A DNA stretch of 64,000 nucleotides, taken from contig JBAXTI010000001.1 in NCBI GenBank assembly GCA_037130265.1, positions 32,418 to 96,417 of the forward strand, given 5' to 3'. The stretch is from a bacterium. Its GTDB lineage: Bacteria > Patescibacteriota > Minisyncoccia > Phycocordibacterales > JBBTRF01. A program made the translations under genes and the position numbers. Positions 1 to 48,238 of this stretch are shown here, in pieces (within the stretch, counting starts at the first letter, position 1; each line of letters opens with the position of its first letter). Under the pieces are notes generated by a model that saw only the letters and a program-made list of their open reading frames with translations, ran no database searches and was not told where the DNA came from.

Positions 1-487
1 CTTCACCTCCTCGAACGCCTCGCTCTTCTGTGCCGCCTCCTTCACCCTGTCTTTTTTGGCAAACAAACCAGAGGCGCTGTCCTTGTTGAGCATGGAAGAG
101 CTGTACGGCACGACCACGAAGAAGCTCTTGGTCATGATGTTGGCCGATTCGGTGAATTTCTTGATGAATTCAATGTACTCACGAGTTTGCAGGCGGAGCA
201 ACTCCCCTGTCTGCTCCTTGTATCGATTTTCGAGCAGCGCGATGTATGGGCGGATGTCGAGTCGGCGTGAGCTCACGAAGATCTGCACGGTGAAGTCGAG
301 AGAGTTGAGGAAATTTTGGAATTGGTAGATGATCGCCTCCTGACTCTCGGTGGATTTGAGAGCAAAGTTGAGAGAGGAAGTGAGAAGGAGTGCACGCATC
401 GAGCCATCTTTGAGAATGGCAATGCCATCCCTCACCTCTTTGAGAGGGACAAATTGCTGGCTCGGTGCTGATTTGGTGAGGGCCATG
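1..487 (-). CDS. VirB4/TrbE/PrgJ-like T4SS ATPase, N-terminal fragment (gene continues beyond window start)
   Basis: Manual translation of the reverse strand from the ATG at 487-485 gives MALTKSAPSQQFVPLKEVRDGIAILKDGSMRALLLTSSLNFALKSTESQEAIIYQFQNFLNSLDFTVQIFV... with no stop before position 1. This matches the N-terminus of Gram-positive-type VirB4 homologues (DUF87). It lies immediately downstream of a PrgI-family gene. It is absent from the ORF track because it is truncated at the window edge. Confidence 0.6.
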
Positions 488-507
488 TTTCGCTTTATTA
501 TACCCGA

Positions 508-957
508 TTATACTTGTTTGTTGTCCTTCGTGACGGGATTCGTAAGATCTTTCGTGGTCACATCCAGACTCCAAGTCATGTCTTTCAGCTTGCTATCGGC
601 CAAGCGCGGGACGTATAGATTGTCGAGGTCACTTGAAGATTCGCGTTCCTCGGTCGTTCTCGCCACCGGTTTTTTGTCCTGTTTCTTCCAGATATATAGC
701 TTCTCCCCAATGTAGTATTTGAAGACGTTTTCGACGAAGAGGATGAACGTTTGGCGCTCATTTGGGTGATAGAAGGCGAGAGCGAGGGCAAAGGCCCCGA
801 CAGGAAGTGCCGCCATGACGCCAAAGAGCAGGCCCAAGTATCGGATGATCACGAAACACATCCCCGCCCCACCAGCAATATAGACGAACTGCTTGATCGT
901 GAGAGGACCAATAATCTTGTCTTCCACCTCGATGAATTGTGGAACTTGAAACCGCAT
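508..957 (-). CDS. PrgI family protein (T4SS-associated small membrane protein)
   Basis: The N-terminus MRFQVPQFIEVEDKIIGPLTIKQFVYIAGGAGMCFVI followed by two TM helices is characteristic of PrgI-family proteins. ATG start. Sits directly upstream of the VirB4-like gene. Confidence 0.6.
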   Translation of the reverse strand: MRFQVPQFIEVEDKIIGPLTIKQFVYIAGGAGMCFVIIRYLGLLFGVMAALPVGAFALALAFYHPNERQTFILFVENVFKYYIGEKLYIWKKQDKKPVARTTEERESSSDLDNLYVPRLADSKLKDMTWSLDVTTKDLTNPVTKDNKQV

Positions 958-1020
958 ACGGATATTATACCGCAGGCACGCGAAATGTCGGTGGGATTAG
1001 TGGCACTGGTCGCCGACGGC

Positions 1021-1635
1021 TTAGTTGATTGCTTCTCGGTACGGGTCTGGTTCGGTGTTAGTGCGCGAGATCTGCGGCGGCAAGCTGGTTGGTCGGCTCA
1101 TCTTCTGCTCCGCGAGGGTCTTTGGAGCGAAGGTGGGTGCAAATGGTGTTGGTTGCGATGCTGCGGGTGTGGAAGGGGTTGTGGGCGTGGCGGTTGTGGC
1201 GCGGGGCGACATATCGCCGGTGAGTGCGATCTTCCCTGGCGAATGGACCTCGAGGAGATGCTCGAAATGTGTCTCTACCGCAGGAATCTCTGCCTGTTCG
1301 CTCTGTGGAATCTCGTGGATGAGGATGAGGGACTCTCGGACCGGTCGGAAGATATTTTCGTTGATCTCGTCGGCGATTTTTTGGGCTGTCGTCGTCGGAA
1401 TATTTGCCAGCTGTGCGATGCGTTGGGAAAACCCTTTTATTGGGTCGACTGCCATGAGGATGTTGCAGGTTAGAGAATTGAGTTGCCACAACAGGCTGCT
1501 GACGACTCGGTGCTCCGTTCCGATTCGTTCGGTAGTCATCCTTGTTTTTTCATCAACGATGACGTCCTGAAGATCCTCAGGGATCTGCCAGAAGCGCTCA
1601 TCCAATTCTTTTTCGGTGCTGATAGAGTATTTCAT
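1021..1635 (-). CDS. hypothetical protein (T4SS-like operon member)
   Basis: 204 aa ORF with ATG start, tightly packed in the minus-strand operon. P/T-rich C-terminus. No recognisable domain. Confidence 0.5.
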   Translation of the reverse strand: MKYSISTEKELDERFWQIPEDLQDVIVDEKTRMTTERIGTEHRVVSSLLWQLNSLTCNILMAVDPIKGFSQRIAQLANIPTTTAQKIADEINENIFRPVRESLILIHEIPQSEQAEIPAVETHFEHLLEVHSPGKIALTGDMSPRATTATPTTPSTPAASQPTPFAPTFAPKTLAEQKMSRPTSLPPQISRTNTEPDPYREAIN

Positions 1636-1640
1636 TGGTG

Positions 1641-4175
1641 CTATTTTTTATCTCCGACTTTCGCTTCACCCCCACCCCCCTCCTTTTCCTTACCCTCCTT
1701 CTCCTTTTTATCAGACTCCTTTTCTTCACGTTTTTCACGACTCTCTTCTATTTTTTCAAGCTTCTTGTGAAGTTCGTTACGAGTTTTCTGTGATTTTAAT
1801 ATACGGCGCTTCTGGATCTGCAGCGAGTGTCTTGATTCTGGGGACAGTTTAGGGTCTGCAAGGTCATCTGCGATTTCTTCCAGAGTGACGACTTCTTCCT
1901 CGGCAAGCTTCTCACGTGCCTCCTTGTATCTCTTAAACATCTTTTCGAGCTGTTCGGCCTTCTTTTCCTTGTCAGCCATTGCCTCGATCTTCGACAATTC
2001 ATCAGCAGCTCCTGCGGATATATCGGCCTGAAGCGTTTTCCACTTCCTCCCCTCCTCAGTGCTCTCGTCATGTGCCTCAGGAAGCGCAGGGCTTAGTGCA
2101 GAATTTCTTGAGCTCTTGATCTCGGCACCAATGTTCTGCATATACGCGAGTATTCCCTTCTCCCAAGCCGCACCTTCTTCTGTCTTCTTCGCGTCCTTCT
2201 TCGTGTCCTCCTTGATTTGTTTATTAACAGCAGCAACTGCAGCAACATTCTCTTTGAAGCTTTCGCCAACACGGTATGGTTGGAAGTTCACCTTGGTGTT
2301 TTTGATGTTTTCCTTGGTCCAGGTTTTAGGATCAAGCGCCTTCAAATTAGTTGCGACATTCAAGGCTGGGGCGACAGGAGTGCCCGTCTTAATTGCCTCA
2401 ACATATCCCTGTTGTCGCTTTGGCTTTGCGTCGCCCTCCTTTTTCTCGAAGTCTTTCTTCTCACTTTCATATTGAGCCTCCCGCATTGCAAATGCCTCGG
2501 CACTTTCAAATGTTTTTCTGTACGGCTTCGGCTGGTTCCATTCAACAACCTTAGACATTCGTCCGTATCCTTCCTTGGCATTTTTCTCCGACTGTTTTAC
2601 GGCCCCATCAAACCCACCTTTTGCGCCACCAAAATCGGCACCAGCGACATTTTTAAGACTACTGTTCATGAGGCGACCAGCCAAAGGACTGACTGATTCG
2701 ATGTTCTTGGCAAAACCACTGTCCCGCGCTGCTGCGGCAGCTCTTCCGAGGGTATTCCTGCCAACCACGCCTTGCAGCTGCCCCTTCTTCTTTTTGAGGT
2801 AGTCGGTGAATACCTCCCCTCCTTCGATACCCACTTTACTTGCGCTCTTCAGAGCGTAGACCATCATTGCAATAACGATGATGAAGCGGAAAACGATGTT
2901 CACGGTCGTGCCGCTCAATGTTGAAAACAAACCAGAAAACCCGTCTGCCCCAGGTGCAACTGTCTGAAAACCAGGACTCTGCAGGATTTTGAAGGTGATC
3001 CACATCATGGCCATGTAGACGGGAGGAAATACGACATTTGCTTGAAGTTCTTTCCACCAATTGCTTTGATACTCGCCCAACTGTGGGAGGACAAAGCCAG
3101 CAAAAGCAATCGGTGAGCGAATCATGAGGAAAATGATGTCAATGAATCGCTTGAGGAAGAGCCAGCACGCCGCGACCATCACCACGATAGTGACACAGAT
3201 GAAAATGCTGCCCATGACAGTGGAAAGGATGTAGGCGAAGGTAGTCACTGGACTGTTAGCTATGTCGGTAACCACTCCACCGTATTTTGGCTTGTAAATA
3301 GTTTCAAGCTTCAGCGATTGCATAATACTGTTTGAGATGCCACCCGCACCGGATGTGCCGGTTGCAATCGAGCCGGGATTAATAGCCCCGGCCCCAACTC
3401 CAGGAAGCTGACTGTAGAATCCAATAGTGACAATGTTTGAAAGATCGAGCGCGACCTTGGTGATGAAAAGACTGAAGTTGATGAGTAGTGCCGCGAGTAC
3501 CAAGTTCCCTACCGTCTTTTTCCAATCGACTTTTTCCAAACCAAGAATAGTGCCTACTGCGGCATAGAGCAATGCAAAAATAAAGAAGAGGTTGATGAAG
3601 TCGCGGATCACTTTCCAGATGTCGGTGATGACGCCGAGACTGTCGATGGTGGTTTTGAGATTGACAATTGTCTTGTCGATGATGAAGTTGAAAACCAGGC
3701 CGACCAAGCCAAGTACCCAGCCGAACATCATCAGGATGGTGTTGCCAATGATTTTCATCGCGACAGGAATCCAGTTGTACGGATTGAGCATTCTCAAAGA
3801 AAAAACCGTGTCCTGATTTCCACTCCCCCCAGCCTGCTTCGGGTCGGTGTTATTCTGGCTCTGCGTGTTTGCTGAGGTGTTGCCGGAGCTCTGTTCAAGG
3901 GCGTCGGTGGCCGCATTTGGGTTGGCAGCCTGATTGATATTTGAAGTCTGCTCGAATGAATTGGTGTCCGCGTTTGGATCGGCTGGCGCTGTAGGCGGTG
4001 CGGTCTCGTTGGTACCCTCTTCCGGTGCGACATTTTGTGCCGGCGGAGTTACGGGAGGTGGCGCTGTCTCACTGCTACCTTCCTCAGCCGAAACGACATT
4101 TGCAAAGATTGAGCAAGTCAAAACCAGTACCATGAGTCCGGCCGCTATGTATTTGTACACAGAGTTGGTTTTCAT
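1641..4175 (-). CDS. large polytopic membrane protein, VirB6/TrbL-like candidate
   Basis: 844 aa. N-terminal signal peptide, then a low-complexity P/T/N-rich region, then about 8 hydrophobic helices, then a long K/E-rich hydrophilic C-terminal tail. This architecture and its operon position match VirB6/TrbL-type channel subunits. Domain call is by composition and topology only. Confidence 0.5.
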   Translation of the reverse strand: MKTNSVYKYIAAGLMVLVLTCSIFANVVSAEEGSSETAPPPVTPPAQNVAPEEGTNETAPPTAPADPNADTNSFEQTSNINQAANPNAATDALEQSSGNTSANTQSQNNTDPKQAGGSGNQDTVFSLRMLNPYNWIPVAMKIIGNTILMMFGWVLGLVGLVFNFIIDKTIVNLKTTIDSLGVITDIWKVIRDFINLFFIFALLYAAVGTILGLEKVDWKKTVGNLVLAALLINFSLFITKVALDLSNIVTIGFYSQLPGVGAGAINPGSIATGTSGAGGISNSIMQSLKLETIYKPKYGGVVTDIANSPVTTFAYILSTVMGSIFICVTIVVMVAACWLFLKRFIDIIFLMIRSPIAFAGFVLPQLGEYQSNWWKELQANVVFPPVYMAMMWITFKILQSPGFQTVAPGADGFSGLFSTLSGTTVNIVFRFIIVIAMMVYALKSASKVGIEGGEVFTDYLKKKKGQLQGVVGRNTLGRAAAAARDSGFAKNIESVSPLAGRLMNSSLKNVAGADFGGAKGGFDGAVKQSEKNAKEGYGRMSKVVEWNQPKPYRKTFESAEAFAMREAQYESEKKDFEKKEGDAKPKRQQGYVEAIKTGTPVAPALNVATNLKALDPKTWTKENIKNTKVNFQPYRVGESFKENVAAVAAVNKQIKEDTKKDAKKTEEGAAWEKGILAYMQNIGAEIKSSRNSALSPALPEAHDESTEEGRKWKTLQADISAGAADELSKIEAMADKEKKAEQLEKMFKRYKEAREKLAEEEVVTLEEIADDLADPKLSPESRHSLQIQKRRILKSQKTRNELHKKLEKIEESREKREEKESDKKEKEGKEKEGGGGEAKVGDKK

Positions 4176-4176
4176 G

Positions 4177-5082
4177 TTATTTCAGCCCACTACTCATGAT
4201 CTTGCTAATGCCCAAGTTGGCCAAAGCGATCACGATATCGTCGAATTCTCGGGCGAGGTTCAGGTAGTCGAGCTCGTTTCCCGTCGCTTTGCTGAGCTGA
4301 TCATTGATAAGGTTTCCGGGGGTCTTGATTGTGCCGTCGCTTGAAAGAAGCGACTTGAAGCCCTTGCCCCAATCAAGCGTGACCTTCGCCGTGTTCTGTC
4401 GACTCGTCACTCGAGCAGCGACGATCTCCTCGCCCATGAGCTGCGAGCCGAATGGGTTGTTCTGCGCCTGGCTTGTCATGGAGATCCAGCCCGGCCAACC
4501 ACCCTGACTGAAATCACCACCCACGAAACCTTGGAGATTTTTTACGATGCCGGTGATACTACATCGAGATGGTGCAGTGTAGCGATCGCGTTCCCGCAGG
4601 AATGAAAGTTGGAGTTGAAGGCGGAATGGGTCGCAGACGAAACCAAGCCCCGACCCGTCAATCATACGACCGATTTCTTGATCGGCGATCTTCCCGAAGA
4701 AGCCGGCTGGATCGGTGACGAAAGTTGGCCCTCCCTCAAAACCGCGATTGATCCAGTCAATGATCGATGATACGAGGGCGTGTACGACGGCCCTTGAGAG
4801 TGTTTTTACAATGAAGTCGAGGAAGCATTTTCGGTCGGTGATCTGATTTTGCGCAAGACCGATCTGCGTAGTTATCGTAATGACCCCGAGGTCGAGTACC
4901 GGTACAGCGATCGGAATAACTGCAGGGACAGGTGGTCTTGGAATACAACCAAAGAACGCCTCAGCTTTTTGTGGCGCAACAAGGGGTAGATCACTCGGTA
5001 CAAGGGTAACGAGGAGAATGGCAGTCACAAGAAAAAAGCATATCGCGTTTTTTCCTGCATTAGCAATGCGAAATCGCTTCAC
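4177..5082 (-). CDS. hypothetical secreted/membrane-anchored protein (T4SS-like operon)
   Basis: 301 aa with an N-terminal hydrophobic anchor. GTG start. The 2 nt gap to the 844 aa gene suggests translational coupling. Confidence 0.5.
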   Translation of the reverse strand: MKRFRIANAGKNAICFFLVTAILLVTLVPSDLPLVAPQKAEAFFGCIPRPPVPAVIPIAVPVLDLGVITITTQIGLAQNQITDRKCFLDFIVKTLSRAVVHALVSSIIDWINRGFEGGPTFVTDPAGFFGKIADQEIGRMIDGSGLGFVCDPFRLQLQLSFLRERDRYTAPSRCSITGIVKNLQGFVGGDFSQGGWPGWISMTSQAQNNPFGSQLMGEEIVAARVTSRQNTAKVTLDWGKGFKSLLSSDGTIKTPGNLINDQLSKATGNELDYLNLAREFDDIVIALANLGISKIMSSGLK

Positions 5083-5096
5083 CTCACAATTTTATC

Positions 5097-6014
5097 TCAC
5101 TGCCCTATAAGGGTAAAGGCATAACCCGGATCTTTTGTGGAGAATACAATGCCTTTTTTGGTGAAGTACTGCCCGACTGATTTCAGTGCGGCATTAAGTG
5201 CTGTGACATTTTGATCATAGGCCGAAAGGTGCGAGATGGCGGTGGCCGGATCGCTCTCGAATACCGCGAAGTGTGCGATGTTGACGCCGATCCGGCCAGT
5301 GACATTGGCGAGGACCACCTGGAGGGGTTTTGCATCACTCGGGATAGTCATTTGTACGAGCTTTTGGCCAATCTTCTCATATGCATCAGCCAATGCTCTC
5401 AGATTGTCGAGATCTTCTGAATTAGCGCCGCCCTCGGCCATTTTGGCGAGCAACGAAAGCTCGTTACCAGCAAGGTTTTTGGGAGAATTTTCCACAATCA
5501 GAGTAGCTAGGGCGTTGCCGTAGGTGCGAATTTGATCTGGGGTGGGGCTGGAAATAAGCCCAAGATTGGCCCCTGTGTAGGTAATGTACTCGATTTTCTT
5601 GGTATTTTCCTCGATAACGTTGTTCACGAGATTCGCTTGGAGTTCTGGGGTGATTTCCTGGCCGTTATTCTTCAAAATCAAGTATTTGGCGAAAAGATCA
5701 ATGGAAATGCGCTCAGTGAGGTTGCGTTGATCGAAGCTCTTTTCAGCATCAGAAACCTTGGATTCGGTCGTTGAAACGCCAGTTTCGCTGCCAGAAGTGT
5801 TAAAAGTGTCTCTGAAAAGGCCGGAATTGCTGCCGGAGACTGCCTGAATCTGTGCGCCACTGCCCACTTCCCCATTTTCAGGGCTGTTCCCAAGCTCGAT
5901 ACTCTTACCGGTCCGGCCAAGCAACACTATCCCCGCCACGGCAGCGAGTACGACGATTCCGAAAGCAATTTTTTTATAAAGAGGTTCCATAAAAGAGTAC
6001 GATCGGTCCGCCAT
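5097..6014 (-). CDS. hypothetical membrane-anchored protein (T4SS-like operon)
   Basis: The ORF track gives 5097..6038 with a GTG start. In-frame ATGs at 6014 and 5990 are more likely starts. Has an N-terminal TM helix. Confidence 0.45.
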   Translation of the reverse strand: MADRSYSFMEPLYKKIAFGIVVLAAVAGIVLLGRTGKSIELGNSPENGEVGSGAQIQAVSGSNSGLFRDTFNTSGSETGVSTTESKVSDAEKSFDQRNLTERISIDLFAKYLILKNNGQEITPELQANLVNNVIEENTKKIEYITYTGANLGLISSPTPDQIRTYGNALATLIVENSPKNLAGNELSLLAKMAEGGANSEDLDNLRALADAYEKIGQKLVQMTIPSDAKPLQVVLANVTGRIGVNIAHFAVFESDPATAISHLSAYDQNVTALNAALKSVGQYFTKKGIVFSTKDPGYAFTLIGQ

Positions 6015-6357
6015 AAGTGACACAAATATGAGTACCACAGTAGAAGTAGCAGTTCATGTACCCCGAAGCTTCGCCGAGGATAAACTGCCCCTCAGATATC
6101 AGCGGTCCGACAGCAAATGGCACAGATACATAGGTCACGAAATAGTAGGTGGTAAGAGATGGCGGTCCAGGTGGTCCGATGATGAATCGTTCGCCCCCAA
6201 GACAGACACCGGGTGGTTCGAGATAGAGTACCGGTCCACCAAAAGGGATCACTTGTGCATCCACTGGCGCTGGCGAGACGGAAGTAACAAATAAAAGACT
6301 AAAGACCAGCAATGCGGGAATATAGCGTAGCACTTTTTGTTTTATTTGAAACCTCAT
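5974..6357 (-). CDS. small secreted Cys-containing protein (T4SS-like operon)
   Basis: The ATG at 6357-6355 overlaps the stop of the upstream gene (ATGA coupling). Signal peptide present. Five Cys in the C-terminal half. Confidence 0.45.
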   Translation of the reverse strand: MRFQIKQKVLRYIPALLVFSLLFVTSVSPAPVDAQVIPFGGPVLYLEPPGVCLGGERFIIGPPGPPSLTTYYFVTYVSVPFAVGPLISEGQFILGEASGYMNCYFYCGTHICVTYGGPIVLFYGTSL

Positions 6358-7256
6358 CACGGTCGATTGAAAATAACCCCGGCCTCCCCAGCCCCGAATC
6401 GGATCCCTTTGTCTTTAAAAAATTGCATCAGAGCAATAAGCACCTTTGCATTTTCTATCACGGTATCATTATATCGCATCATGGACTCCGCGGTGATTGT
6501 CGTGCCAGATCGTCCGCTCCAAATGCTGTTCAGAGTATCCGCCTGTGTCGCGTAACTCTCTGAAATTTTCTTGTGAATTTCTGTTACTGAAGAGGCCTCT
6601 TGTTCGAGTGATATGCTGGAAACTTTCTTCGCAAACGAGTCAACTGTTTTTGCGAACGCCCCCAGTGAGTCGATCTTCTCTTGGCTCGGACTGTTTATCG
6701 TATCTACCAAAAGGTGGCCTATTTTATAGGTTTCTATGCTTTTGGTGTATGCGAGAATCGCTGTTGCGAGATCGTTGCCGTATTTTCTCAAGGCCTGTTC
6801 CGTGCTGACTGTAGCACTTTTTTGGGTGGTCGTTGCGACACCTTTGTTTTTCGTGGTCGTTGGTTCAGGCGCACTAGCTTCAATGTTCACCGTGCGAATC
6901 CTAAGAAGTTTTTCTCGTGTGAGTTTTCCAACAAAACCGGTTCCTGCGTTTAGACCGGCGGGCACGAGAACTTCCACGGGGTATTTTTCCTGGAAACGGA
7001 TGACCGCAGCAAGTGTCGCCTTTCCAAAGAAATCTGTTTCAAAACCAGCTGACCCTGCCCCACTCTCGGACACGATAGTATCGGCGTCGACATTCAAGAG
7101 TTGTTGAAGTGAGCGGACTTCTGGGTCGTGCATGCCAATGAATAGATTTTTTGACAGCATGCCTGCCTCAGCTTGCGCGACGGACGAGCGGGTCGTCGTA
7201 AAAAAAAGAAAAAACAGACAAAAAAATATGAAAATGGTCGAGGATCGGAAATCCAT
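6357..7256 (-). CDS. peptidoglycan-binding domain (PG_binding_1-like) protein with signal peptide
   Basis: The motif LQQLLN...FGKATLAAVIRFQEKY matches the putative PG-binding domain. N-terminal hydrophobic signal. Start taken at the ATG encoding MDFRSS (7256), just below the rsmA stop. Confidence 0.6.
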   Translation of the reverse strand: MDFRSSTIFIFFCLFFLFFTTTRSSVAQAEAGMLSKNLFIGMHDPEVRSLQQLLNVDADTIVSESGAGSAGFETDFFGKATLAAVIRFQEKYPVEVLVPAGLNAGTGFVGKLTREKLLRIRTVNIEASAPEPTTTKNKGVATTTQKSATVSTEQALRKYGNDLATAILAYTKSIETYKIGHLLVDTINSPSQEKIDSLGAFAKTVDSFAKKVSSISLEQEASSVTEIHKKISESYATQADTLNSIWSGRSGTTITAESMMRYNDTVIENAKVLIALMQFFKDKGIRFGAGEAGVIFNRP

Positions 7257-7258
7257 CC

Positions 7259-8065
7259 CTAAATCATAGCACACAGCTTCCCCCAATGTTCGAGCGTCAC
7301 CTCTTCCGCGCGCACTTTTTCGCCTAGGCCGAGCGTGGCGAGAGTTTCCGCACGTTTTTCAGCAGGAATTTCCAGGTTGCTCGCGAGGATTTTGCGTTTA
7401 TGTGAGAACCCCTTCTTCACGACTTCAAAAAATGCGGTTTCTGTAAGCAAACGGTCGAGGAAAAACTGTTTCGAGATCTTGTCGATGAGCAAAATCGCCG
7501 AATCCACTTTCGGTTCCGGAGAAAAATACTTGGCCGGCACCTTTGCGATGTATTTTGGCGTGCCGTACGCCTTCACACTGATTGAAAGAATGCTTTCCTT
7601 GCCGTCGCGGGCCACGATACGCTGTGCCACTTCTTTTTGGAGCATCAACACCATTTTGCTTGGCTGGTATGCCGACTCGAGGAACATGCGGAGGAGTTGG
7701 CCGGTGATGTAGTAGGGGATATTGGCGATGATCTTGTACTGCCCTTCGCGCAGGCCGCACTCCGCGAGCTTTTCGAGGGTCATTTCCAAGATGTCGCCGT
7801 GGATGAGGATGAGCTTGCCCGAGGCGAGCGAACCGGCAAACGCCTCTCGCAGCAGAGGGATCATGCGGTCGTCTTTTTCGATGGCGATGAGGCGGCCACC
7901 GGAGGAGAGTTTTGCGAGCAGTGCTTCGGTCAAAACCCCTTTTCCTGGGCCAATTTCAAGGATATTGTCGCCCGGCTGGATGTCTGCTGCAGACACGATA
8001 TCTCGCACTGCCTCTTTTGACTTGAGGAAGTTCTGGCCGAGCGATTTTTTGGCAGGGAGATGCAT
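7259..8065 (-). CDS. rsmA: 16S rRNA (adenine1518/1519-N6)-dimethyltransferase RsmA/KsgA
   Basis: Begins KKSLGQNFLKSKEAVRDIV...ILEIGPGKGVLTEALL. The full length matches KsgA. Confidence 0.9.
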   Translation of the reverse strand: MHLPAKKSLGQNFLKSKEAVRDIVSAADIQPGDNILEIGPGKGVLTEALLAKLSSGGRLIAIEKDDRMIPLLREAFAGSLASGKLILIHGDILEMTLEKLAECGLREGQYKIIANIPYYITGQLLRMFLESAYQPSKMVLMLQKEVAQRIVARDGKESILSISVKAYGTPKYIAKVPAKYFSPEPKVDSAILLIDKISKQFFLDRLLTETAFFEVVKKGFSHKRKILASNLEIPAEKRAETLATLGLGEKVRAEEVTLEHWGKLCAMI

Positions 8066-8092
8066 TGTTTTGTTCCTCTACCCTACCCGAAA

Positions 8093-10102
8093 TTAGTCGA
8101 AATAGAAAGAGCGGCCGGTGCGCGCGGGCCGCTGGTATTCGTACGAGGCCGCTTCAACATTGTGGTCGGCGATGTCGCCGAGAAATTCCGAAGGCACGTT
8201 CATGCGTTTGCTGCCGAAGATCGTGCGCACGCCAGCGAATGTGAGGTAGAGGCGCTTCTTCGCGCGAGTGAGGGCGACGTAGAAAAGTCGGCGCTCTTCT
8301 TCAGATTCGGACTCGCTCATACGTTCCTCGCTGAGTTTCAGGTGCGGGAAGAGATCTTGTTCGAGGCCGGTGATAAAAACGTGTTCAAATTCGAGACCTT
8401 TCGAGGCATGGACGGTCATGAGCTTCACGGCGTTCTTCGCTTCTTTCATTTCGTCTTGGTCAGATTGCAGCGCGGCTTCCTCGATTAGTTTTTCGAGGCC
8501 AGAAGCCGCGCTGGTTTCTGTGCCAAGCGTCACCGGCGGCAAATGATCGTACTTTGTCGAGAGTGTCACCAATTCCTGCAAGTTTTCGAGGCGCTCGAGG
8601 TCCTCATCGGTGCCTTTTTTGTATTCGGCCTCAAGACCGCTCGCTGAAACCACGAAGCGCATCACCGAAGATGGCTTCTCTCGAGTCGCGAGATCGCGGA
8701 TCTGTGTCAGTACGTTGCGGAAGCTTTGGATTTTGTCGCGCACTGCCCCACTCAGGCTCTCTTCCTGTCCGCTAAAGATCTTCAGCAAGGTCACTTTGCC
8801 AATGCCGCGCGGCGGTTCGTTGATGATGCGCTTCAAGTCGGCCAAGCCTTGCGGATTCAACGCCGCACGCAGATACGACAGTGCATCTTTGATTTCTTTG
8901 CGTTCAAAAAACTTCGTACCGAGTAGCTGGTATGGCACACTGTGCGCCAAAAAAGCTTCCTCGAGAATGCGCGATTGGAAGTTGGCACGAAACAGCACAG
9001 CGATCTCGTTTGGCTCTACTCCGCCACGGATTAGCTCATTGGATTTCTCCGCGATGTAGTGCGCCTCCTCGACTTCGTCATATCCCTCGAACATCACGAT
9101 CTTCTCCCCTGCTCCCTGACGAGTGAAGAGATTTTTCTCGCGACGCTTCTTGTTTTTCTTGATCACCGCGTTGGCCGTATCCAAAATAGTCTTGGTGGAG
9201 CGATAATTTTCTTCGAGCGTCACGACTTTCGCTTCTGGATAGTCTTTTTCGAAATCCATGATGTTCTTGATATCCGCGCCGCGCCAGCTGTAGATGTTTT
9301 GGTCGATGTCGCCGACCACGCAGAGGTTGCGGGTCTTGCTTGCGAGCAACTTGGCGATCATGTACTGCACTTTGTTGGTGTCCTGGTACTCGTCGATGTG
9401 GATATATTTCCAAATACCCTGATACCGCTCGAGCACTTCTTTGTGATCGCGCAACAGCAGCGCGCTTTTCAGGAGAAGGTCATCGAAATCGAGTGCCTGC
9501 TCTTTCTTTAGATGCTCCTCGTACTTTTTCCAGACGGTCGCGACGATGTTGGAGAAGTATTCGTTGCTGGTGAGTCGAGTAAACGCTTCGACGGTGGTGA
9601 GATTGCCCTTTTCGCGCGAGATAACACGGAGAATTTTGGCCGGCTCGAATTGTTTTGGATCAAGGCCAGCTTCAATGACCGCTGCTTTCACCGCGCTGGT
9701 AGCATCGGTCTTGTCGAAAATAGTGAAATGTCGATTGAGACCGATGAGTCGGCTGTTCTCTTTCAAAATATGTACCCCGAGCGCGTGAAAAGTGCTCACA
9801 AAGGGTTTTTCCTCAAAGCTCACCGGCATGTTGAGGCTCTCATCTTCCCGGATCAGCTTCAGCACGCGCTCGCGCATCTCCTTGGCTGCTTTGTTGGTGA
9901 ACGTGATCGCCAATACCTGGTGTGGCGCAATTCCCTGCTTTACGATGTGCAAAATACGATGGGTGACGGTCTTGGTTTTGCCTGCTCCTGCACCGGCGAG
10001 TATCAAAAGCGGTCCTTCAATCTGCAAAACCGCCGATTTTTGTTCGGAATTAAGACTCTCGAGATGTTTCACCCGAATACTATACCATGGGGACAGCGCC
10101 AT
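8093..10102 (-). CDS. pcrA: ATP-dependent DNA helicase PcrA/UvrD family
   Basis: Carries GAGAGKTKTVTHRI (Walker A), TFTNKAAKEMRERV and the later UvrD motifs. 669 aa. Confidence 0.9.
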   Translation of the reverse strand: MALSPWYSIRVKHLESLNSEQKSAVLQIEGPLLILAGAGAGKTKTVTHRILHIVKQGIAPHQVLAITFTNKAAKEMRERVLKLIREDESLNMPVSFEEKPFVSTFHALGVHILKENSRLIGLNRHFTIFDKTDATSAVKAAVIEAGLDPKQFEPAKILRVISREKGNLTTVEAFTRLTSNEYFSNIVATVWKKYEEHLKKEQALDFDDLLLKSALLLRDHKEVLERYQGIWKYIHIDEYQDTNKVQYMIAKLLASKTRNLCVVGDIDQNIYSWRGADIKNIMDFEKDYPEAKVVTLEENYRSTKTILDTANAVIKKNKKRREKNLFTRQGAGEKIVMFEGYDEVEEAHYIAEKSNELIRGGVEPNEIAVLFRANFQSRILEEAFLAHSVPYQLLGTKFFERKEIKDALSYLRAALNPQGLADLKRIINEPPRGIGKVTLLKIFSGQEESLSGAVRDKIQSFRNVLTQIRDLATREKPSSVMRFVVSASGLEAEYKKGTDEDLERLENLQELVTLSTKYDHLPPVTLGTETSAASGLEKLIEEAALQSDQDEMKEAKNAVKLMTVHASKGLEFEHVFITGLEQDLFPHLKLSEERMSESESEEERRLFYVALTRAKKRLYLTFAGVRTIFGSKRMNVPSEFLGDIADHNVEAASYEYQRPARTGRSFYFD

Positions 10103-10140: not shown

Positions 10141-11307
10141 TTGCAGGGTAGGTCTACGGGAATACAGAATGGCTCTACACAGCCATCTAATGACAGAAAC
10201 GCGTGTTTAGTCTCTAATTCGAAGCGTATTTTTAAGAACCTCAAAAAAACGGCTCTACTTAGGCTTTTTTCTACGAAAGCTAGCCTCGCCGTACCTGTAG
10301 GCGTTTTCCTAGTGGGAATCGCTGTCTTTCCACAGCCTTTACTCGCGAAGGCTTTTTCGATTTTTGCCGATCTTTTCGCCGCTGAAAAGTCATCTGCAAA
10401 AACAATAGTACTGGTCCGAAATTCCCAAAACATGGCTCTGTTGAGTGCTGAAATGAGCCCAGAGCCCGGTTTTGCTCGTGGCGGCGGGGATATTACTGTT
10501 GTGAGTGGTAATACCTTGGTGGCCGAGAGCGGTCCTTTGGGTACCATGGGAAACATCGATGACTTTCCTCTCTATCAGCGCATCAGTTTGTACACTGTTC
10601 GCGAGGGCGACACCTTGACACAGATCGCTAAAATGTATGGTATTTCGGTAAACACCATCGTGTGGGCGAACAGTTTGAGCGGAAAATCTATCCAACTTGG
10701 ACAGACACTCACCATCCTCCCTATTTCCGGCATCGCGCACACTGCAGGCAAGGGTGATACCTTGAAGAGTATCGCCAAGAAATACAAAACTGACGTCGCC
10801 GAACTCGCGCTTTTTAATGATCTTAGCGAAGACAGCGTGATCACTGAAGGTGTGGTGGTCACTATTCCCGAAGGAGAGACTGTGGTGGTGCCTGCGGCGG
10901 TCGGCAAGACTCCTGCCAAGGCCACCAAACCGAATGGCGCACATGACACGAATGGTCCAGAATACCCGGGATATTATTTGCGTCCAACCAACGGTATTAA
11001 GACTCAAGGCCTCCACGGTTACAACGGCATCGACATTGGTTCCTCTATCGGTACGCCAATTCGAGCATCTGCAGCCGGAGACGTCATTATTTCTCGCAAT
11101 AGCGGTTGGAACGGTGGGTACGGCAACTATGTGGTGATCAGTCACTCAAACGGTACTCAGACCTTGTACGCACACATGAAGCAGACTGTCGTATCTGTCG
11201 GCGAGCGAATTTCTCAGGGGGATATCATCGGTTCGGTCGGTTCCACTGGTAATTCGACCGGGCCACACATCCACTTTGAAATTCGAGGTGCACACAATCC
11301 GTTCTAA
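10141..11307 (+). CDS. LysM-domain M23 family metallopeptidase (peptidoglycan hydrolase)
   Basis: Two LysM repeats (YTVREGDTLTQIAKMYGISVNTIVWAN..., HTAGKGDTLKSIAKKYKTDVAELALFN). C-terminal M23 signature (HGYNGIDIG...GYGNYVVISHSNG...STGPHIHFEI). Start is uncertain: a TTG at 10141 gives an N-terminal TM anchor, and the next in-frame ATG is at 10432. Confidence 0.8.
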   Translation: MQGRSTGIQNGSTQPSNDRNACLVSNSKRIFKNLKKTALLRLFSTKASLAVPVGVFLVGIAVFPQPLLAKAFSIFADLFAAEKSSAKTIVLVRNSQNMALLSAEMSPEPGFARGGGDITVVSGNTLVAESGPLGTMGNIDDFPLYQRISLYTVREGDTLTQIAKMYGISVNTIVWANSLSGKSIQLGQTLTILPISGIAHTAGKGDTLKSIAKKYKTDVAELALFNDLSEDSVITEGVVVTIPEGETVVVPAAVGKTPAKATKPNGAHDTNGPEYPGYYLRPTNGIKTQGLHGYNGIDIGSSIGTPIRASAAGDVIISRNSGWNGGYGNYVVISHSNGTQTLYAHMKQTVVSVGERISQGDIIGSVGSTGNSTGPHIHFEIRGAHNPF

Positions 11308-12413: not shown

Positions 12414-13769
12414 ATGAAAACGTTTCTCAAACGCATTATTCCGCTGCAGATCTTTTCTGCGTATTATTGGCTGTTTTCCGTGTTGGGTGCATTGCTATAC
12501 GGCTTCCCTTCGCGAAAAATGATTGTCGTCGGCATCACGGGTACCAAAGGCAAGACATCGACGGCCAATTTTATCTGGTCGTGTGCTATGGCGGCAAACA
12601 TGAAGGCCGGGATCATCACTACTGCCAATATCCGTATTGGCAATGAAGAGTCGATGAATCACTACCACATGACCATGCCTGGCCGCTTCGCTATTCAGCG
12701 CACAATGCGAGAAATGGTGAAAAAGGGTTGCAAGGTCTGTGTTGTTGAAACGACCTCAGAAGGTTTGAAGCAGTGGCGGCACGCGGGTATCGACTACGAT
12801 GTGGCGATTTTCACCAATCTCACCCCTGAGCACCTTCCTTCTCATGGCGGTAGTTTTGAGGCATACAAACGGGCAAAGGGAGCACTTTTTAGCTCACTTC
12901 ATCGGTCGAAGCATAAAGTGCTCGACGGTGTGTCTGTGCAGAAAATCGTCTTGGCAAACAATGACAGTGAGCACGCACCCTATTACTTGAGTCTGGCTTC
13001 AGGTATTGCACATACTTTTTCTATACATGCAGCCTCTGATACAAAGGCGGAACGCATTCTCGAAAGTCATGAGGGTGTGACATTTGATGTGTGCGGTGCA
13101 GGGAATCATAATTGCGTTTCATATCGACTCTCGGTACTAGGTGCATTCAATGTATACAATGCACTCCCCGCTCTCGCTTTGATGAAACTTTGGAATGTTT
13201 CAGAGGAGCAAGTTCAGGCTGGATTGAAAGCACTTACTCTTATCCCAGGTCGGATGGAAGTTGTGTGTTCCCCAGTTGTTACGCACAGCGACAAAAGTGT
13301 CGTCTTCCCTGCGACCGTGATCGTGGACTATGCTCACGAGGGTCAAAGTATGGGCGTTGCAACAGATGCTTCGCGCAAGATGCTTGGCGTAGGCGGCAAA
13401 TTAATCGTCCTCCTTGGTGCTGAGGGTGGTGGACGAGACAAAGCGAAGCGAAAGGATATGGGTGAGGTGGTCGCAAAGAATGCGGATATCGTGGTGGTGA
13501 GCGATGTTGATCCCTACGAAGATGACCCTGTCGAGATTTGTGAAGATATTGCGAAGACGGTGGAGGCTGCTGGCAAAAAGCGTGGCATGAATTTGTTTGT
13601 GATCGGCGATCGTCGTGCTGGTATCGCTAAAGCTTTGTCTCTCGCCGAGACAGGAGATATTGTACTTGTTACCGGTAAGGGTGCGGAGCAGTCGATGGTG
13701 ATAAAAGGCGGTTCGATTCCCTGGGACGATCGTGTTGTGGTGCGTGAAGAATTTGCGAAGCGCGTGTAA
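12414..13769 (+). CDS. murE: Mur ligase, MurE-like (UDP-MurNAc-L-Ala-D-Glu:L-Lys/DAP ligase) with N-terminal TM helix
   Basis: Carries VGITGTKGKTST, TNLTPEHLPSHGG, GRMEVV, DYAHEG, LLGAEGGGRDKAKR and VLVTGKGAEQ. The order and spacing match MurE. Start at ATG 12414. The track's GTG at 12300 overlaps femAB. Confidence 0.65.
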   Translation: MKTFLKRIIPLQIFSAYYWLFSVLGALLYGFPSRKMIVVGITGTKGKTSTANFIWSCAMAANMKAGIITTANIRIGNEESMNHYHMTMPGRFAIQRTMREMVKKGCKVCVVETTSEGLKQWRHAGIDYDVAIFTNLTPEHLPSHGGSFEAYKRAKGALFSSLHRSKHKVLDGVSVQKIVLANNDSEHAPYYLSLASGIAHTFSIHAASDTKAERILESHEGVTFDVCGAGNHNCVSYRLSVLGAFNVYNALPALALMKLWNVSEEQVQAGLKALTLIPGRMEVVCSPVVTHSDKSVVFPATVIVDYAHEGQSMGVATDASRKMLGVGGKLIVLLGAEGGGRDKAKRKDMGEVVAKNADIVVVSDVDPYEDDPVEICEDIAKTVEAAGKKRGMNLFVIGDRRAGIAKALSLAETGDIVLVTGKGAEQSMVIKGGSIPWDDRVVVREEFAKRV

Positions 13770-13790
13770 TTTTCTGACCCCCGGCCTTTC

Positions 13791-15329
13791 TTATTTGAGG
13801 GGTGTTTGTCGATATTGTAAGGCTTCGAGAATATGCCCTTCTTCCACTTGAGTCGATCTTTCTAGGTCTGCAATGGTTCTGGCTACTCGTAACGTCCGAT
13901 GAAAACCACGTGTAGAGATGGCGAGTGAGTTTGCTTGTTTTGTCAGCAAAGCGATGGCCGTGTCGCTGGCATTGAGGTGAGTACTCTCTGTGCTTGCTTT
14001 CTGTTTGCGCTCCAGGTGCTTCACTCGGACTTCTGAGAGCGCCTTTTTGATGTCTCTGGCTAGAGCTGTTGTGTCGACAGGCTTTTTCTCAGTCATTTCT
14101 ATGTACGAATGTTTCGGCTGCTCTACGCGTACCCAGATATCGATACGATCGATGATCGGTCCTGAGACTTTCTCAGCGTATTTTCGTAGCATTGGTTGGC
14201 TACAAGTGCATGGGTGGGTGCTCGTGCCACGGTATCCGCACGGGCACGGATTCATGGCGAGGATCACGATACAGTCGGCTGGTAATTCTCTATGTTGTTC
14301 GGCTCTCGCAATCCGCACTACTCTTTCTTCCATCGGTTGGCGTAAGGCCTCCACTACTCGACGGTCGAATTCTGGAAATTCGTCCAGAAACAAAATACCT
14401 TTGTGTGCCAAGGTGATCTCGCCGATTGGCTGCTTGTTTCCCCCACCGATCACTGCTGCATACGACGCGCTATGGTGTGGTGCTCGAAAGGGCGGCCGTT
14501 GTGAATCTTTACTGAGCGAGTTTCCGAAAGAATGTATTGCAAGCACCTCGAGCTTTTCTGGGTCGGTGAGATCAGGAATGATGGAATGTGCGCTGCGAGC
14601 TAAAAGAGTCTTCCCTGTTCCTGGTGGGCCGACAAAAGCGATGGAGTGCCGGCCCGCCAATGCAATCTGCAACGCACGTTTCCCTGCCTCTTGCCCGACG
14701 ATTTTTTCAATAGAAAAATCCGACATATTATCTCCGACAGGCCCTGTCGGTACCGCTACTATCGGTGCTGGTATCGATACTGGAAGTGATGCCTTCCCTT
14801 CCAAGTGTTGCACCACCTCACGTAATGTCGCGGCTCCATGAACGGAAAGGTTGGCCACGAGACAGGCTTCGGTGGCATTGTCCTTCGATACAAATAGATG
14901 CGTGATACCCTGCTCTTTGGCTGTCTTGGCAATCGACAAAATACCGCGGATTCCTCGAATGTTGCCATCGAGTGCTAGTTCGCCAATGAATAGCATTTCT
15001 TCAGCACGAGCGCAGGCTTCGCTGCTCGGCCTCAGGTCTTGAGTGGCGATGAGGTAGCCAATGGCCATGGCGAGGTCGAAACCGGTCCCTTCTTTTGGCA
15101 ACTGGGCGGGAGCAAGGGATATTACCACCTTTTCGTTGCGGCTTTTCGGAGATTTGTACCCGGAATGCTTGATGGCCGCGGCAATTCGATCTTTCGCTTC
15201 GGCCAAAGCTTTGTCAGCCATTCCAACAATCGAAAAAGCATGCAAGCCACGAGAAATGTCCACTTCTACATGGATGATCTGTCCGTCGAGGCAATCGTTT
15301 TGTGCGCTTAGTACTTTTGCAATCTTCAT
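13791..15329 (-). CDS. comM: YifB/ComM family Mg-chelatase-like AAA+ ATPase
   Basis: N-terminal Lon-like domain, GPPGTGKT Walker A and C-terminal ChlI-like region. 512 aa. Confidence 0.85.
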   Translation of the reverse strand: MKIAKVLSAQNDCLDGQIIHVEVDISRGLHAFSIVGMADKALAEAKDRIAAAIKHSGYKSPKSRNEKVVISLAPAQLPKEGTGFDLAMAIGYLIATQDLRPSSEACARAEEMLFIGELALDGNIRGIRGILSIAKTAKEQGITHLFVSKDNATEACLVANLSVHGAATLREVVQHLEGKASLPVSIPAPIVAVPTGPVGDNMSDFSIEKIVGQEAGKRALQIALAGRHSIAFVGPPGTGKTLLARSAHSIIPDLTDPEKLEVLAIHSFGNSLSKDSQRPPFRAPHHSASYAAVIGGGNKQPIGEITLAHKGILFLDEFPEFDRRVVEALRQPMEERVVRIARAEQHRELPADCIVILAMNPCPCGYRGTSTHPCTCSQPMLRKYAEKVSGPIIDRIDIWVRVEQPKHSYIEMTEKKPVDTTALARDIKKALSEVRVKHLERKQKASTESTHLNASDTAIALLTKQANSLAISTRGFHRTLRVARTIADLERSTQVEEGHILEALQYRQTPLK

Positions 15330-20418: not shown

Positions 20419-21411
20419 ATGTCCGACCTCCATCAGCTCAAGCGCGAGTTTCTCGAGTACACCGAGATCGAAAAGGGTCGCAGTTTGAAAACGGTGGCCA
20501 ACTACGAGCGTTATTTGGATCGATTTTTGTCATACAGCAAGCTGAAGGATCCTGCGGGAGTGACGGACGATGTGTTGCGAGAATATCGATTGTGGCTCAA
20601 TCGACAGGCGGCAACGAAGACCCGCGACGGGCGCGTGGCCACAACGCTGAAAAAGAAGAGTCAGAACTACTATTTGATCGCGCTGAGGTCTTTTTTGAAA
20701 TATTGCGCCCGTCGCGGGGTGAAATCATTGGCTCCGGAGCGTATTGAGCTCGCCAAGGTGGCTGAACGTTCACTAGATTTGATCAGTGCCGACGAACTCA
20801 AACGATTGATGCATGCCGCCGATGATGCGGCCAACAAGGGCGACTTGAAAGGTTTGCGTGACAAGGCGATGATGGAGCTACTCTTCTCTACTGGTCTACG
20901 TGTGTCTGAGCTCTGTTCCCTCTCGCGCGATCTCGATCTCCGAGCAGACGAATTTTCTGTGCGAGGCAAGGGTGAGAAGGTGCGCGTCGTCTTTTTGTCC
21001 GAGTCGGCGCGCCAGGCGGTGAAGAAATACCTCGATAAGCGCGTCGACATGGACGACGCGCTATTTGTCCAGGCTGCAGGACCAATTGGCTTGAAAAAAT
21101 GGAAGGAAGATAAGGCTTCGAAGGACAAAAAGGCTGGCAAAAAGGATTTTGGCTCGAACACCACACGCCTCACTGCCCGCTCGGTGGAACGCATCGTCAA
21201 ACATTATGGAGTGAAGGCCGGTATTTCAAAAAAAGTTACTCCGCACGTAATTCGCCACTCCTTTGCCACCGACCTCCTCCAGAACGGTGCTGATCTTCGC
21301 TCTGTGCAGATGCTCCTCGGTCACGCCAACATCGGTACCACCCAGATCTACACACACGTCACAGACAAGCAGCTCCGCGAGGTACACAAGAAGTTTCATA
21401 ATCGGAAGTAA
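20419..21411 (+). CDS. xerC: tyrosine site-specific recombinase XerC/XerD family
   Basis: The C-terminal catalytic region (HVIRHSFATDLLQNGADLRSVQMLLGHANIGTTQIYTHV) and the N-terminal SAM-like domain are typical of Xer recombinases. Confidence 0.85.
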   Translation: MSDLHQLKREFLEYTEIEKGRSLKTVANYERYLDRFLSYSKLKDPAGVTDDVLREYRLWLNRQAATKTRDGRVATTLKKKSQNYYLIALRSFLKYCARRGVKSLAPERIELAKVAERSLDLISADELKRLMHAADDAANKGDLKGLRDKAMMELLFSTGLRVSELCSLSRDLDLRADEFSVRGKGEKVRVVFLSESARQAVKKYLDKRVDMDDALFVQAAGPIGLKKWKEDKASKDKKAGKKDFGSNTTRLTARSVERIVKHYGVKAGISKKVTPHVIRHSFATDLLQNGADLRSVQMLLGHANIGTTQIYTHVTDKQLREVHKKFHNRK

Positions 21412-26772: not shown

Positions 26773-26844
26773 GCACCTATAGTGAAACGGATATCACAAC
26801 GGTCTTCGGAACCGTTAGTTCAGGTTCGAGTCCTGATGGGTGCA
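26773..26844 (+). tRNA. tRNA-Arg (anticodon TCG)
   Basis: Manual cloverleaf: acceptor GCACCTA/TGGGTGC, anticodon stem ACGGT/ACCGT with loop CTTCGGA, T-arm TCAGG-TTCGAGT-CCTGA. Confidence 0.75.
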
Positions 26845-40430: not shown

Positions 40431-40483
40431 ACTTTATGCGCTGAATTATTTATTCGTCAATTATTATGTATCATTCCCACCCC

Positions 40484-44486: not shown

Positions 44487-44516
44487 ATATGGAGGGAGCT
44501 TCGGCCAAAAAATATC

Positions 44517-45734
44517 ATGCCACTATTTTCATACAAAGCAGTCGATCCAAATGGCGTTTCCAGAGAGGGAACGGCTGATGCTGCGGATCGCTTTGCAGTG
44601 GCCCGTGAGCTGAAAGAGAAGGGGCTCATGCTCGTGAGTGCCGAGGAGACTCTCGAGAAGCATTCTGTGCTCGATGAGAAAATTCGTCAGCTTTTTGGTC
44701 GCATTAGCATGCGCGAGAAGATAATGTTTGCCCGTAATACGAGCGCGATGCTCGAGGCGGGCCTCACTTTGTCTCGCATCCTCTCTGTAATCGAGCGTCA
44801 ATCGAGAAATCAGAAATTCAAAGAGGTCGTATCGACGATCAACAATGAGATTCGCGGCGGCAAGACGCTGAACGAGGCCATGGTGGGCTTTCCGAAGGTA
44901 TTTTCGCCACTTTTCGTCTCCATGGTCCGCTCCGGCGAGGAATCGGGTAATCTTTCTGGTGCACTAAAGACTTTGAGTGGGCAGATGGAGAAGAGCTATT
45001 TGCTCCAGAAGCGCTTGCGGGGCGCACTTATCTATCCAGTGATCGTGATGTGTCTGATTGCTGTTATCGGTGTGCTTATGTTTATCTATGTAGTGCCGAC
45101 TCTTACGAACACATTCAAAGAGTTGCATGTGAAATTGCCATGGAGCACGCAACTCATCGTTTCGACGAGTGATTTTCTTCGATACCATACGATCGCTTTC
45201 ATTTTGGCCGTTGCCGCAGTTATTTTTGGCATCATTTTCTTCAAGCGCAGCGCTTTTGGTGGTAAGCTTATCGACAAAGTCATGCTCCGCCTACCGATTG
45301 TTGGTGTCTTGGTGAAAGAGTCCAATTCGGCTCGTACGGCCCGCACCTTATCTTCATTGCTTTCAGCCGGTGTGTCCTTTTTGGCAGCCATGGAGATCAC
45401 TCGTGATGTTGTGCAAAATATTTTTTACAAAGAAGTACTTGAAAAGGCGCGGCTGAATGTGCAGAAAGGCGACCCGATTTCAAGTGTGTTCATCGAAAAT
45501 GAGCATTTGTATCCGGCTTTTGTCGGCGAAATGACCAGTGTGGGCGAGGAAACAGGCCAATTGGCCGAAATGATGCTCGGTATTGCGACTTTTTATGAAG
45601 GAGAAGTGGAACAGAAGACGAAAGACATGTCCACAATCATTGAGCCGTTGCTCATGGTACTTATCGGTTCCGCAGTAGGATTCTTTGCCGTCTCCATGAT
45701 TAGTCCGACGTATTCACTTCTCGACAATATCTAG
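44517..45734 (+). CDS. pilC: type IV pilus inner-membrane platform protein PilC (GspF family)
   Basis: Two T2SSF repeats and three TM helices. 405 aa. Confidence 0.85.
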   Translation: MPLFSYKAVDPNGVSREGTADAADRFAVARELKEKGLMLVSAEETLEKHSVLDEKIRQLFGRISMREKIMFARNTSAMLEAGLTLSRILSVIERQSRNQKFKEVVSTINNEIRGGKTLNEAMVGFPKVFSPLFVSMVRSGEESGNLSGALKTLSGQMEKSYLLQKRLRGALIYPVIVMCLIAVIGVLMFIYVVPTLTNTFKELHVKLPWSTQLIVSTSDFLRYHTIAFILAVAAVIFGIIFFKRSAFGGKLIDKVMLRLPIVGVLVKESNSARTARTLSSLLSAGVSFLAAMEITRDVVQNIFYKEVLEKARLNVQKGDPISSVFIENEHLYPAFVGEMTSVGEETGQLAEMMLGIATFYEGEVEQKTKDMSTIIEPLLMVLIGSAVGFFAVSMISPTYSLLDNI

Positions 45735-48156: not shown

Positions 48157-48238
48157 GGGCAAAAGTATACCATTTTTGGCGACGCTCTGTGGTGGCCGAT
48201 GGTCAATTCGCCAAATCCTGCGTGATATACTTTCCATT

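Follow-up and report, generated by a model that had tools for sequence, protein, structure and literature searches.

A relaxase-less, origin-proximal type IV secretion locus in a patescibacterium, probably serving exchange with its host

Much of bacterial diversity belongs to the Patescibacteria, which apparently live on other cells and whose type IV secretion system (T4SS) is the first that was shown to be essential for its bearer. Southlakia epibionticum requires the T4SS encoded by SEML1_0006-0019 for epibiotic growth (Wang et al. 2023, PMC10633639). The Patescibacteria VirB4 clade is monophyletic and nested in MPF-FATA, with TrsD as its commonest partner and with PrgI/VirB3, VirB6 and VirB2-like pilins encoded close to virB4 (Quinonero-Coronel et al. 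2025, PMC12102498). The same work places the Paceibacteria cluster close to dnaA, dnaN, rnpA, rpmH and ksgA, reports relaxases in just 103 of 3,035 genomes of Patescibacteria, and finds VirD4-like genes distant from virB4 in many of these genomes, the distant type IV coupling protein (T4CP) being non-essential in Southlakia (PMC12102498). Here, we analyzed a 64-kb stretch of contig JBAXTI010000001.1 from a patescibacterium (hereafter the window, which means this whole stretch). Its first genes very likely represent the upstream two-thirds of a chromosomal, origin-proximal Patescibacteria T4SS that would exchange macromolecules with a host and not conjugate. Coordinates are window positions unless stated otherwise, and the whole T4SS block, rsmA and pcrA are on the minus strand.

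Eight co-oriented open reading frames (ORFs) fill the first 7.3 kb of the window, with rsmA and pcrA next. From the window start, they comprise a partial TrsD-like gene (1..489; the first 163 codons of a 210-aa protein whose remainder lies beyond the window start), a PrgI/VirB3-like gene (508..957; 149 aa), g204 (1021..1635; a soluble protein of 204 aa with a DPYRE tail), an extended VirB6-like gene (1641..4175; a polytopic membrane protein of 844 aa), g283 (4177..5028, with a possible GTG start at 5082; 283 or 301 aa, membrane-anchored or secreted), g297 (5097..5990 or 6038; a single-pass membrane protein of 297 or 313 aa), g127 (5974..6357 or 6360; a small, secreted, Cys-rich protein of 127 or 128 aa) and a peptidoglycan (PG)-binding-like gene (6357..7256 or 7286; a secreted protein of 299 or 309 aa). 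These ORFs match independent gene calls on two public contigs with identical DNA, and for six of the eight, orthologues detectable by tblastn occupy the same relative position in related genomes. Because of these orthologues, the Cys-containing homologues of g127 and the conserved DPYRE tail of g204, all eight were taken as real genes. The first-pass annotation, made from the sequence of the window, had described eight tightly packed minus-strand genes with gaps of 0 to 20 nt. The ORFs were found where it had placed them, but the gaps are not uniformly this small: from the PG-binding-like gene to trsD, the spacing is -1, -17, 14 to 68 (depending on the start), 1, 5, 63 and 21 nt, the widest gaps lying before prgI (63 nt), after prgI (21 nt) and between g297 and g283 (14 to 68 nt). 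GC content is uniform across the region (0.49 to 0.53), and a promoter and terminator scan detected no enrichment over shuffled sequences.

The cluster had been expected to run on past the window start, and its continuation was seen on a 99.7-kb metagenome contig, L001, which carries an exact copy of the 844-aa protein and reaches ~8 kb past window position 1 (window position equals 14176 minus the L001 coordinate). For comparison with relatives, a VirB4 scan of one genome per species returned 523 relatives, and the best 80 loci were kept; these belong to metagenome-assembled genomes labelled Parcubacteria, Paceibacterota, Taylor-, Zambryski- or Campbellbacteria, "uncultured Candidatus Saccharibacteria", or "bacterium". 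Gene order and identity were determined by tblastn of every L001 protein against these best 80 of 523 loci, with a denominator of 80, 52 or 51 depending on the gene.

On L001, the complete TrsD-like gene (13690-14322, 210 aa) has its stop codon 8 nt before virB4. Its product matched the N-terminal region of the NCBIfam VirB4_plasma model (E 6.9e-10), positions 2-120 of conju_CD1110 (E 4.8e-7) and the TrsD/TraD family (E 2e-6), and hhalign placed the family profile on a clostridial plasmid VirB4 over residues 27-198 (E 3.3e-4). Since these matches are confined to the N-terminal parts of VirB4 models and include the TrsD/TraD family, the gene at 1-489 is, as judged by its profile matches, a stand-alone TrsD-like homologue of the VirB4 N-terminal domain. 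A separate TrsD-like ORF (median 213 aa, 61% identity) is present in 78 of the 80 loci. The proposal that the gene at the window edge is the start of a VirB4 ATPase was therefore refuted, the TrsD-like ORF being distinct from the 625-aa VirB4 and the split being kept in these 78 loci.

VirB4 itself (L001 14331-16208) lies just outside the window. It scored 383.6 bits against the NCBIfam CD1110 family ("VirB4-like conjugal transfer ATPase"; cutoff 325) over model positions 180-733 and matched P-loop_TraG (E 2.4e-28), PDB entry 4AG5, the solved VirB4 C-terminal domain (E 3.5e-42), and TrwK (E 8e-9). Both the Walker A (GSGKS) and Walker B (VIDEAW) motifs are intact. This profile check identified the gene upstream of the window as a bona fide VirB4 of the CD1110 family and not an unrelated ATPase.

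Past virB4, the order is g169 (169 aa, two transmembrane segments), g407 (407 aa, secreted), a 376-aa pilin-domain protein and g443 (443 aa, anchored), followed on the other strand by yidC, rnpA and rpmH and then by dnaA, ~6-8 kb beyond the window start. The pilin-domain protein (L001 18023-19153) has a signal peptide and two transmembrane segments. Its own copy of PF18895 reached 25.6 bits against a gathering score of 26.6, and the family was detected in 44 of 50 orthologues (best E 4.7e-10), with TrbC in 2. On these family matches, the 376-aa protein is assigned a VirB2-like pilin domain. The domain covers residues 91-151 and is followed by a C-terminal extension of ~220 aa; at 376 aa, the protein far exceeds canonical VirB2 pilins in length, and its orthologues range from 200 to 500 aa.

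Within the window, the PrgI call was upheld, Pfam PF12666 scoring 33.9 bits against a gathering score of 27. As expected of this family, PrgI has two hydrophobic segments within residues 33-62 that form a two-helix membrane hairpin, and 78 of 80 loci have an orthologue (49% identity). By hydropathy, the 844-aa protein combines a signal peptide and a low-complexity ectodomain with about six transmembrane helices and a charged C-terminal tail of ~400 aa, a layout that matches the "extended VirB6" described in PMC12857230. Its gene is upstream of prgI, the same placement as in clostridial and enterococcal plasmids, and has orthologues in 50 of 51 loci at 30% identity. An AlphaFold2 model of residues 120-520, built from an alignment of 46 sequences, had a pLDDT of 80.4. 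When this model was compared by Foldseek with 350,542 PDB chains, all five best matches were to TrwI/VirB6 of R388, with probabilities of 0.82-0.99, target-normalised TM-scores of 0.40-0.47 and E values of 0.1-0.7.

At the level of sequence families, Pfam and NCBIfam scans of the 844-aa protein gave no match, and the only Pfam family to recur among its relatives was TrbL PF04610 (6 of 69, best E 2.8e-5, sub-threshold). Alignment by hhalign of the VirB6-like profile to single sequences gave non-significant values for pCF10 PrgH (E 0.015-0.047) and clostridial CD1112 VirB6 (E 0.72), and an hmmsearch of the profile over PDB sequences returned no relevant match. The family itself is large, with 24,692 representative clusters at E<=1e-3; the search of the representative library listed only close members and gave no link to canonical TrbL proteins. 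PF19590 tags that six of the relatives carried as precomputed annotation were neither reproduced nor named and were not used as evidence. Because of the fold matches and the gene context, the 844-aa protein was accepted as a predicted, remote, extended VirB6-like protein. The VirB6/TrbL call of the first-pass annotation thus received remote support from the modelled fold; its TrbL side found no Pfam match in the protein and only sub-threshold ones in relatives.

Gene order was conserved in the 80 Paceibacteria loci, with a steep gradient in identity. VirB4 (80 of 80 loci) was about 80% identical, TrsD 61% and PrgI 49%, and the membrane or secreted parts fell to 24-32%, among them g407 and g443 (each 52 of 52 loci, about 32%) and the pilin-domain protein (47 of 52, about 32%). 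Neighbouring housekeeping genes were intermediate: RsmA had an orthologue in 45 of 51 loci (median identity 50%), YidC, on the opposite strand, in 51 of 52 (47%), and PcrA at its position in 36 of 51 (55%). VirB4 was therefore more conserved than PcrA, RsmA and YidC in the same loci, a contrast that is somewhat inflated because the loci were ranked by VirB4 similarity.

These features agree with the Patescibacteria T4SS described previously. As in that group, a separate TrsD-like protein stands beside VirB4, a PrgI/VirB3, a predicted, remote VirB6-like protein and a VirB2-like pilin are encoded near virB4 with no relaxase or T4CP nearby, and the cluster occupies a chromosomal site next to dnaA, rpmH, rnpA and ksgA. 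The order of the VirB6-like, PrgI, TrsD-like and VirB4 genes is that of Southlakia genes 0011/0013, 0010, 0009 and 0008. In contrast to Southlakia, which has a six-pilin array, this locus has a single 376-aa pilin-domain gene, virB4 is not immediately followed by a gene for a lysozyme or peptidase, and no NTF2-like protein was identified; g297, g283, the DPYRE-tail protein, g169, g407 and g443 are specific to Paceibacteria. The cluster is thus an ordinary further example of the relaxase-less, origin-proximal Patescibacteria T4SS already described. It is a clean Paceibacteria case that confirms the published picture and is no new kind of system; what it adds is a class-specific list of accessory genes with their levels of conservation, and the observation that VirB4 is conserved beyond neighbouring housekeeping genes.

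The VirB4, TrsD and PrgI families have been typed on conjugative plasmids and integrative and conjugative elements (ICEs) of Firmicutes, and the locus shares several features with MPF-FATA systems such as pCF10 Prg/Pcf and the CD1110/CD1112/CD1115 families, for example C. botulinum pCDC3875. These include a CD1110-family VirB4, a PrgI-family protein, the gene order VirB6 (here VirB6-like), PrgI, VirB4, and a monoderm architecture without VirB7, VirB9 and VirB10; the TrsD-type split of the VirB4 N-terminal domain is likewise known from pGO1 (PMC12102498), with TrsD-TrsE in pGO1 and pIP501. Together with the VirD4-like genes that lie far from virB4 in many Patescibacteria genomes (PMC12102498), the shared families and gene order would fit an ICE or a chromosomal conjugation system that transfers DNA between cells and has its relaxase and coupling protein genes at another site. 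However, Firmicutes plasmids add VirD4, a relaxase and a VirB1 hydrolase, with the T4CP inside the cluster in both pCF10 and pCDC3875, whereas no SLT/CHAP VirB1 or PrgL/TraM-type VirB8 was identified in the cluster described here, which has no LPXTG adhesin either. The VirB6-like protein is 844 aa here, against about 260 aa for VirB6 there, and a VirB2-like pilin is present here but lacking in Gram-positive T4SS. VirB4 was 77-96% identical among the best 80 of 523 loci, but at most 35.5% identical to any plasmid VirB4.

In place of a mobile element, the locus is a fixed chromosomal one, held between rsmA and yidC across species and remaining beside dnaA and rsmA over dozens of them. No relaxase or T4CP Pfam domain was detected among the L001 genes or the window ORFs of at least 330 aa (~72 kb), in agreement with the first-pass statement that neither is visible within the window. 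Inspection of L001 upstream of position 1 for VirD4, relaxase and TraG revealed VirB4 and no relaxase or coupling protein. Neither an integrase adjacent to the cluster or at its borders nor a GC anomaly was observed. An ICE remnant was ruled out, since the location is fixed and hallmarks of a mobile element were not seen. Given also the rarity of relaxases among Patescibacteria genomes and the dispensability of the distant T4CP in Southlakia (PMC12102498), we regard a conjugative element of any kind as very improbable.

Comparison with R388 Trw (PDB 8RT9 and 7O3V) showed likeness in TrwI/VirB6 as the best structure match, in the VirB2/TrbC-like pilin domain and in the relation of VirB4 to TrwK. 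The two systems differ in that no outer-membrane core complex, recognisable VirB5, VirB8 or VirB11, or T4CP was found here, and in that the VirB6 relationship is sub-threshold at the sequence level.

The claim of a minimal Gram-positive-type T4SS set in a patescibacterium was borne out by the above-threshold PrgI, the confirmed VirB4 and the lack of a nearby relaxase or T4CP. For its function, DNA uptake or host interaction had been proposed in place of conjugation. The non-conjugative part of this proposal is supported, but uptake is the less likely of the two, since genes for ComEC and a type IV pilus are present in the window itself. A competence-type T4SS like Helicobacter ComB or archaeal Ced, importing nucleotides or DNA from the host or the environment, would be consistent with the absence of a nearby relaxase or T4CP, as for ComB, with the helicase gene pcrA as a conserved neighbour, and with the inability of Patescibacteria to synthesise nucleotides (PMC10633639). 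VirB4 also gave partial, weak NCBIfam matches to CedB (E 1.4e-9) and CedD. The CedB match, however, spans just ~70 residues of the P-loop region, and a canonical uptake route is encoded in the window by ComEC (51082-53482) and PilB/PilC (42732-45734). In Southlakia, moreover, loss of comEC abolishes transformation and leaves viability unaffected, while the T4SS is essential (PMC10633639; review PMC12857230). An uptake machine is therefore an improbable reading, although less so than conjugation.

Exchange of macromolecules with the host is thus favored over DNA uptake because of the ComEC and type IV pilus route, and over conjugation because no relaxase, T4CP or sign of mobility was found. By analogy with established T4SS architecture, PrgI would anchor an energising complex of TrsD and VirB4 to the VirB6 membrane platform, on which a VirB2-like pilus or a conduit through the cell wall would be assembled. 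The fast-evolving secreted proteins g283, g407, g443 and g297 may form or decorate the extracellular part that touches the host cell. Most likely, protein or other macromolecules would pass through such a machine between the epibiont and the bacterium that hosts it.

Several observations weigh against this interpretation. The VirB6 assignment is remote, the 844-aa protein having no Pfam or NCBIfam match, Foldseek E values of 0.1 or higher and non-significant profile alignments. No VirB1-like or VirB8-like component was detected in the cluster by Pfam, NCBIfam or hhalign, the last with single-sequence templates of low sensitivity, and the relaxase and T4CP scan spans ~72 kb of a genome contig of roughly 464 kb. 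A tyrosine recombinase gene (20419-21411, plus strand; Phage_integrase E 1.9e-45, SAM-like N-domain), of XerC/D type and most likely a XerC/D housekeeping gene, lies ~13 kb from the T4SS cluster. The counterparts of the PG-binding-like and Cys-rich genes are on the opposite strand in most of the relatives that have a match, as described below. Finally, the data on T4SS essentiality come from Saccharimonadia, another class than Paceibacteria.

Two of the accessory proteins offer mildly new leads, as candidates for recruitment and for host contact. The first, g204, had no Pfam or NCBIfam match and no transmembrane segment. Its N-terminal domain is helical, and a linker rich in Pro and Thr leads to the conserved DPYRE tail at the C-terminus. 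By tblastn, it was found in only 17 of 51 loci and seemed poorly conserved, but the tail motif recovered the family: in 50 of 65 loci, the ORF immediately preceding prgI ends in DP[YF][RKH]E-x(0-6)-stop, a motif that occurs once in the 64-kb window. A homologue search returned 14 close relatives, all without annotation. Across L003-L082, the orthologues share the near-invariant tail, and the helical domain and linker are without database annotation.

The second, g283, has orthologues in 50 of 51 loci at ~31% identity. Most of these are 520-840 aa long and carry C-terminal F5/8 type C, Ig-like, fn3 or Big_7 domains; from this comparison, the window protein appears to be a short form of a family that has adhesin-like C-terminal domains elsewhere. 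Its AlphaFold2 model (26-sequence alignment; pLDDT 52, pTM 0.20) was too weak to use. It is conceivable, if unlikely, that g204 is a dedicated cytoplasmic adaptor or substrate whose DPYRE tail docks onto the TrsD/VirB4/PrgI complex in the recruiting role of VirD4, and that the g283 family, whose lectin or Ig modules are interchangeable in relatives, provides a host-specific tip adhesin.

The third accessory protein in the window block, g297, has an N-terminal transmembrane segment and a conserved C-terminal domain of ~200 aa, with orthologues in 31 of 51 loci at ~24% identity. When the g297, g283, g204, g169, g407 and g443 families were aligned by hhalign to proteins of the pCF10 and pCDC3875 T4SS regions, the best E value was 0.016, the templates being single sequences and sensitivity accordingly low.

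The PG-binding-like protein had been counted as a part of the T4SS, and this membership was weakened in two respects. First, the PG_binding_1 match of the 299-aa protein is sub-threshold (E 0.086; 13.5 bits against a gathering score of 23); its signal peptide is included only from the start at 7256 or further upstream. Second, its N-terminal domain is ~50% identical to genes on the opposite strand in 15 of the 18 loci with a match, and in those loci a g127 homologue comes after the PG-binding-like gene. In an alignment of the g127 homologues, three Cys are invariant, and the proteins share an FGG motif and end in G[TS]SL (GTSL in g127). Because of the opposite strand in most relatives, the PG-binding and Cys-rich pair is best described as a conserved neighbouring module, and its membership in the operon or the T4SS is doubtful.

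Whether the pair (5974-7256) is in fact an independent cell-wall module beside a six-gene T4SS block in the window is finely balanced, and we put this possibility slightly below an even chance. Along with the divergent orientation, two observations speak for it. In L052, L068 and L043, the PG-binding protein carries the g127 domain at its C-terminus, the pair being fused to each other and not to T4SS parts. The PG-binding protein of L003, the closest relative, moreover has a TIG-like C-terminal domain in place of the g297-like one present here. On the other side, the pair stays adjacent to the T4SS block whichever its orientation, and here it has the orientation of the T4SS genes, with overlaps of 1-17 nt between adjacent genes. 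The PG-binding-like protein and g297, a protein of the T4SS block, have paralogous C-terminal domains (BLASTP E 3e-6), and the same PG-binding-like N-terminal domain is carried by g443 orthologues inside the block in L057 (13854-15383) and L026 (14240-15790). The presence of this N-terminal domain on g443 orthologues suggests that the accessory proteins undergo domain shuffling. In L003, an extra 485-aa polytopic protein that is absent from the window is encoded between rsmA and the PG-binding gene (977-2434, minus strand); by eye, we take it to resemble Lnt/CN-hydrolase.

Upstream of the block, rsmA/ksgA (7259..8065) encodes a 16S rRNA dimethyltransferase (TIGR00755, 208 bits against a cutoff of 171), and pcrA (8093..10102) a UvrD-type helicase with UvrD-helicase and UvrD_C domains. 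Both are housekeeping neighbours, and rsmA is outside the T4SS. The T4SS genes, rsmA and pcrA (1-10102) all point toward dnaA/rpmH and are convergent with yidC-rnpA-rpmH (L001 20457-22535), while cumulative GC skew climbs along the plus strand of the window. From this orientation and the rising skew, the cluster appears to be transcribed head-on to replication, an orientation that is kept in relatives.

Divergent from pcrA is a plus-strand gene with two LysM domains and a Peptidase_M23 domain (10141-11307), found at the same position in only 7 of 51 loci; proteins of the LysM/Peptidase_M23 type are possible VirB1 substitutes according to the literature. The window ORFs of at least 330 aa otherwise comprise housekeeping genes, the PilB/PilC pair, ComEC and the Xer-like recombinase. 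The plus-strand pair consists of a PilB-like T2SSE ATPase with MshEN (E 4e-122) and then a PilC-like T2SSF protein (E 2.5e-54), and the 718-aa ORF that precedes it (40466-42622) had no Pfam match. RecJ (48122-50080) is encoded just upstream of ComEC, which is represented on the plus strand by two overlapping ORFs, one with DUF4131 and Competence domains (485 aa) and one with a metallo-beta-lactamase domain (333 aa), reflecting either a split gene or a frameshift. Four Rfam tRNA genes are located on the plus strand between 26773 and 31390, at 26773, 26943, 27823 and 31320.

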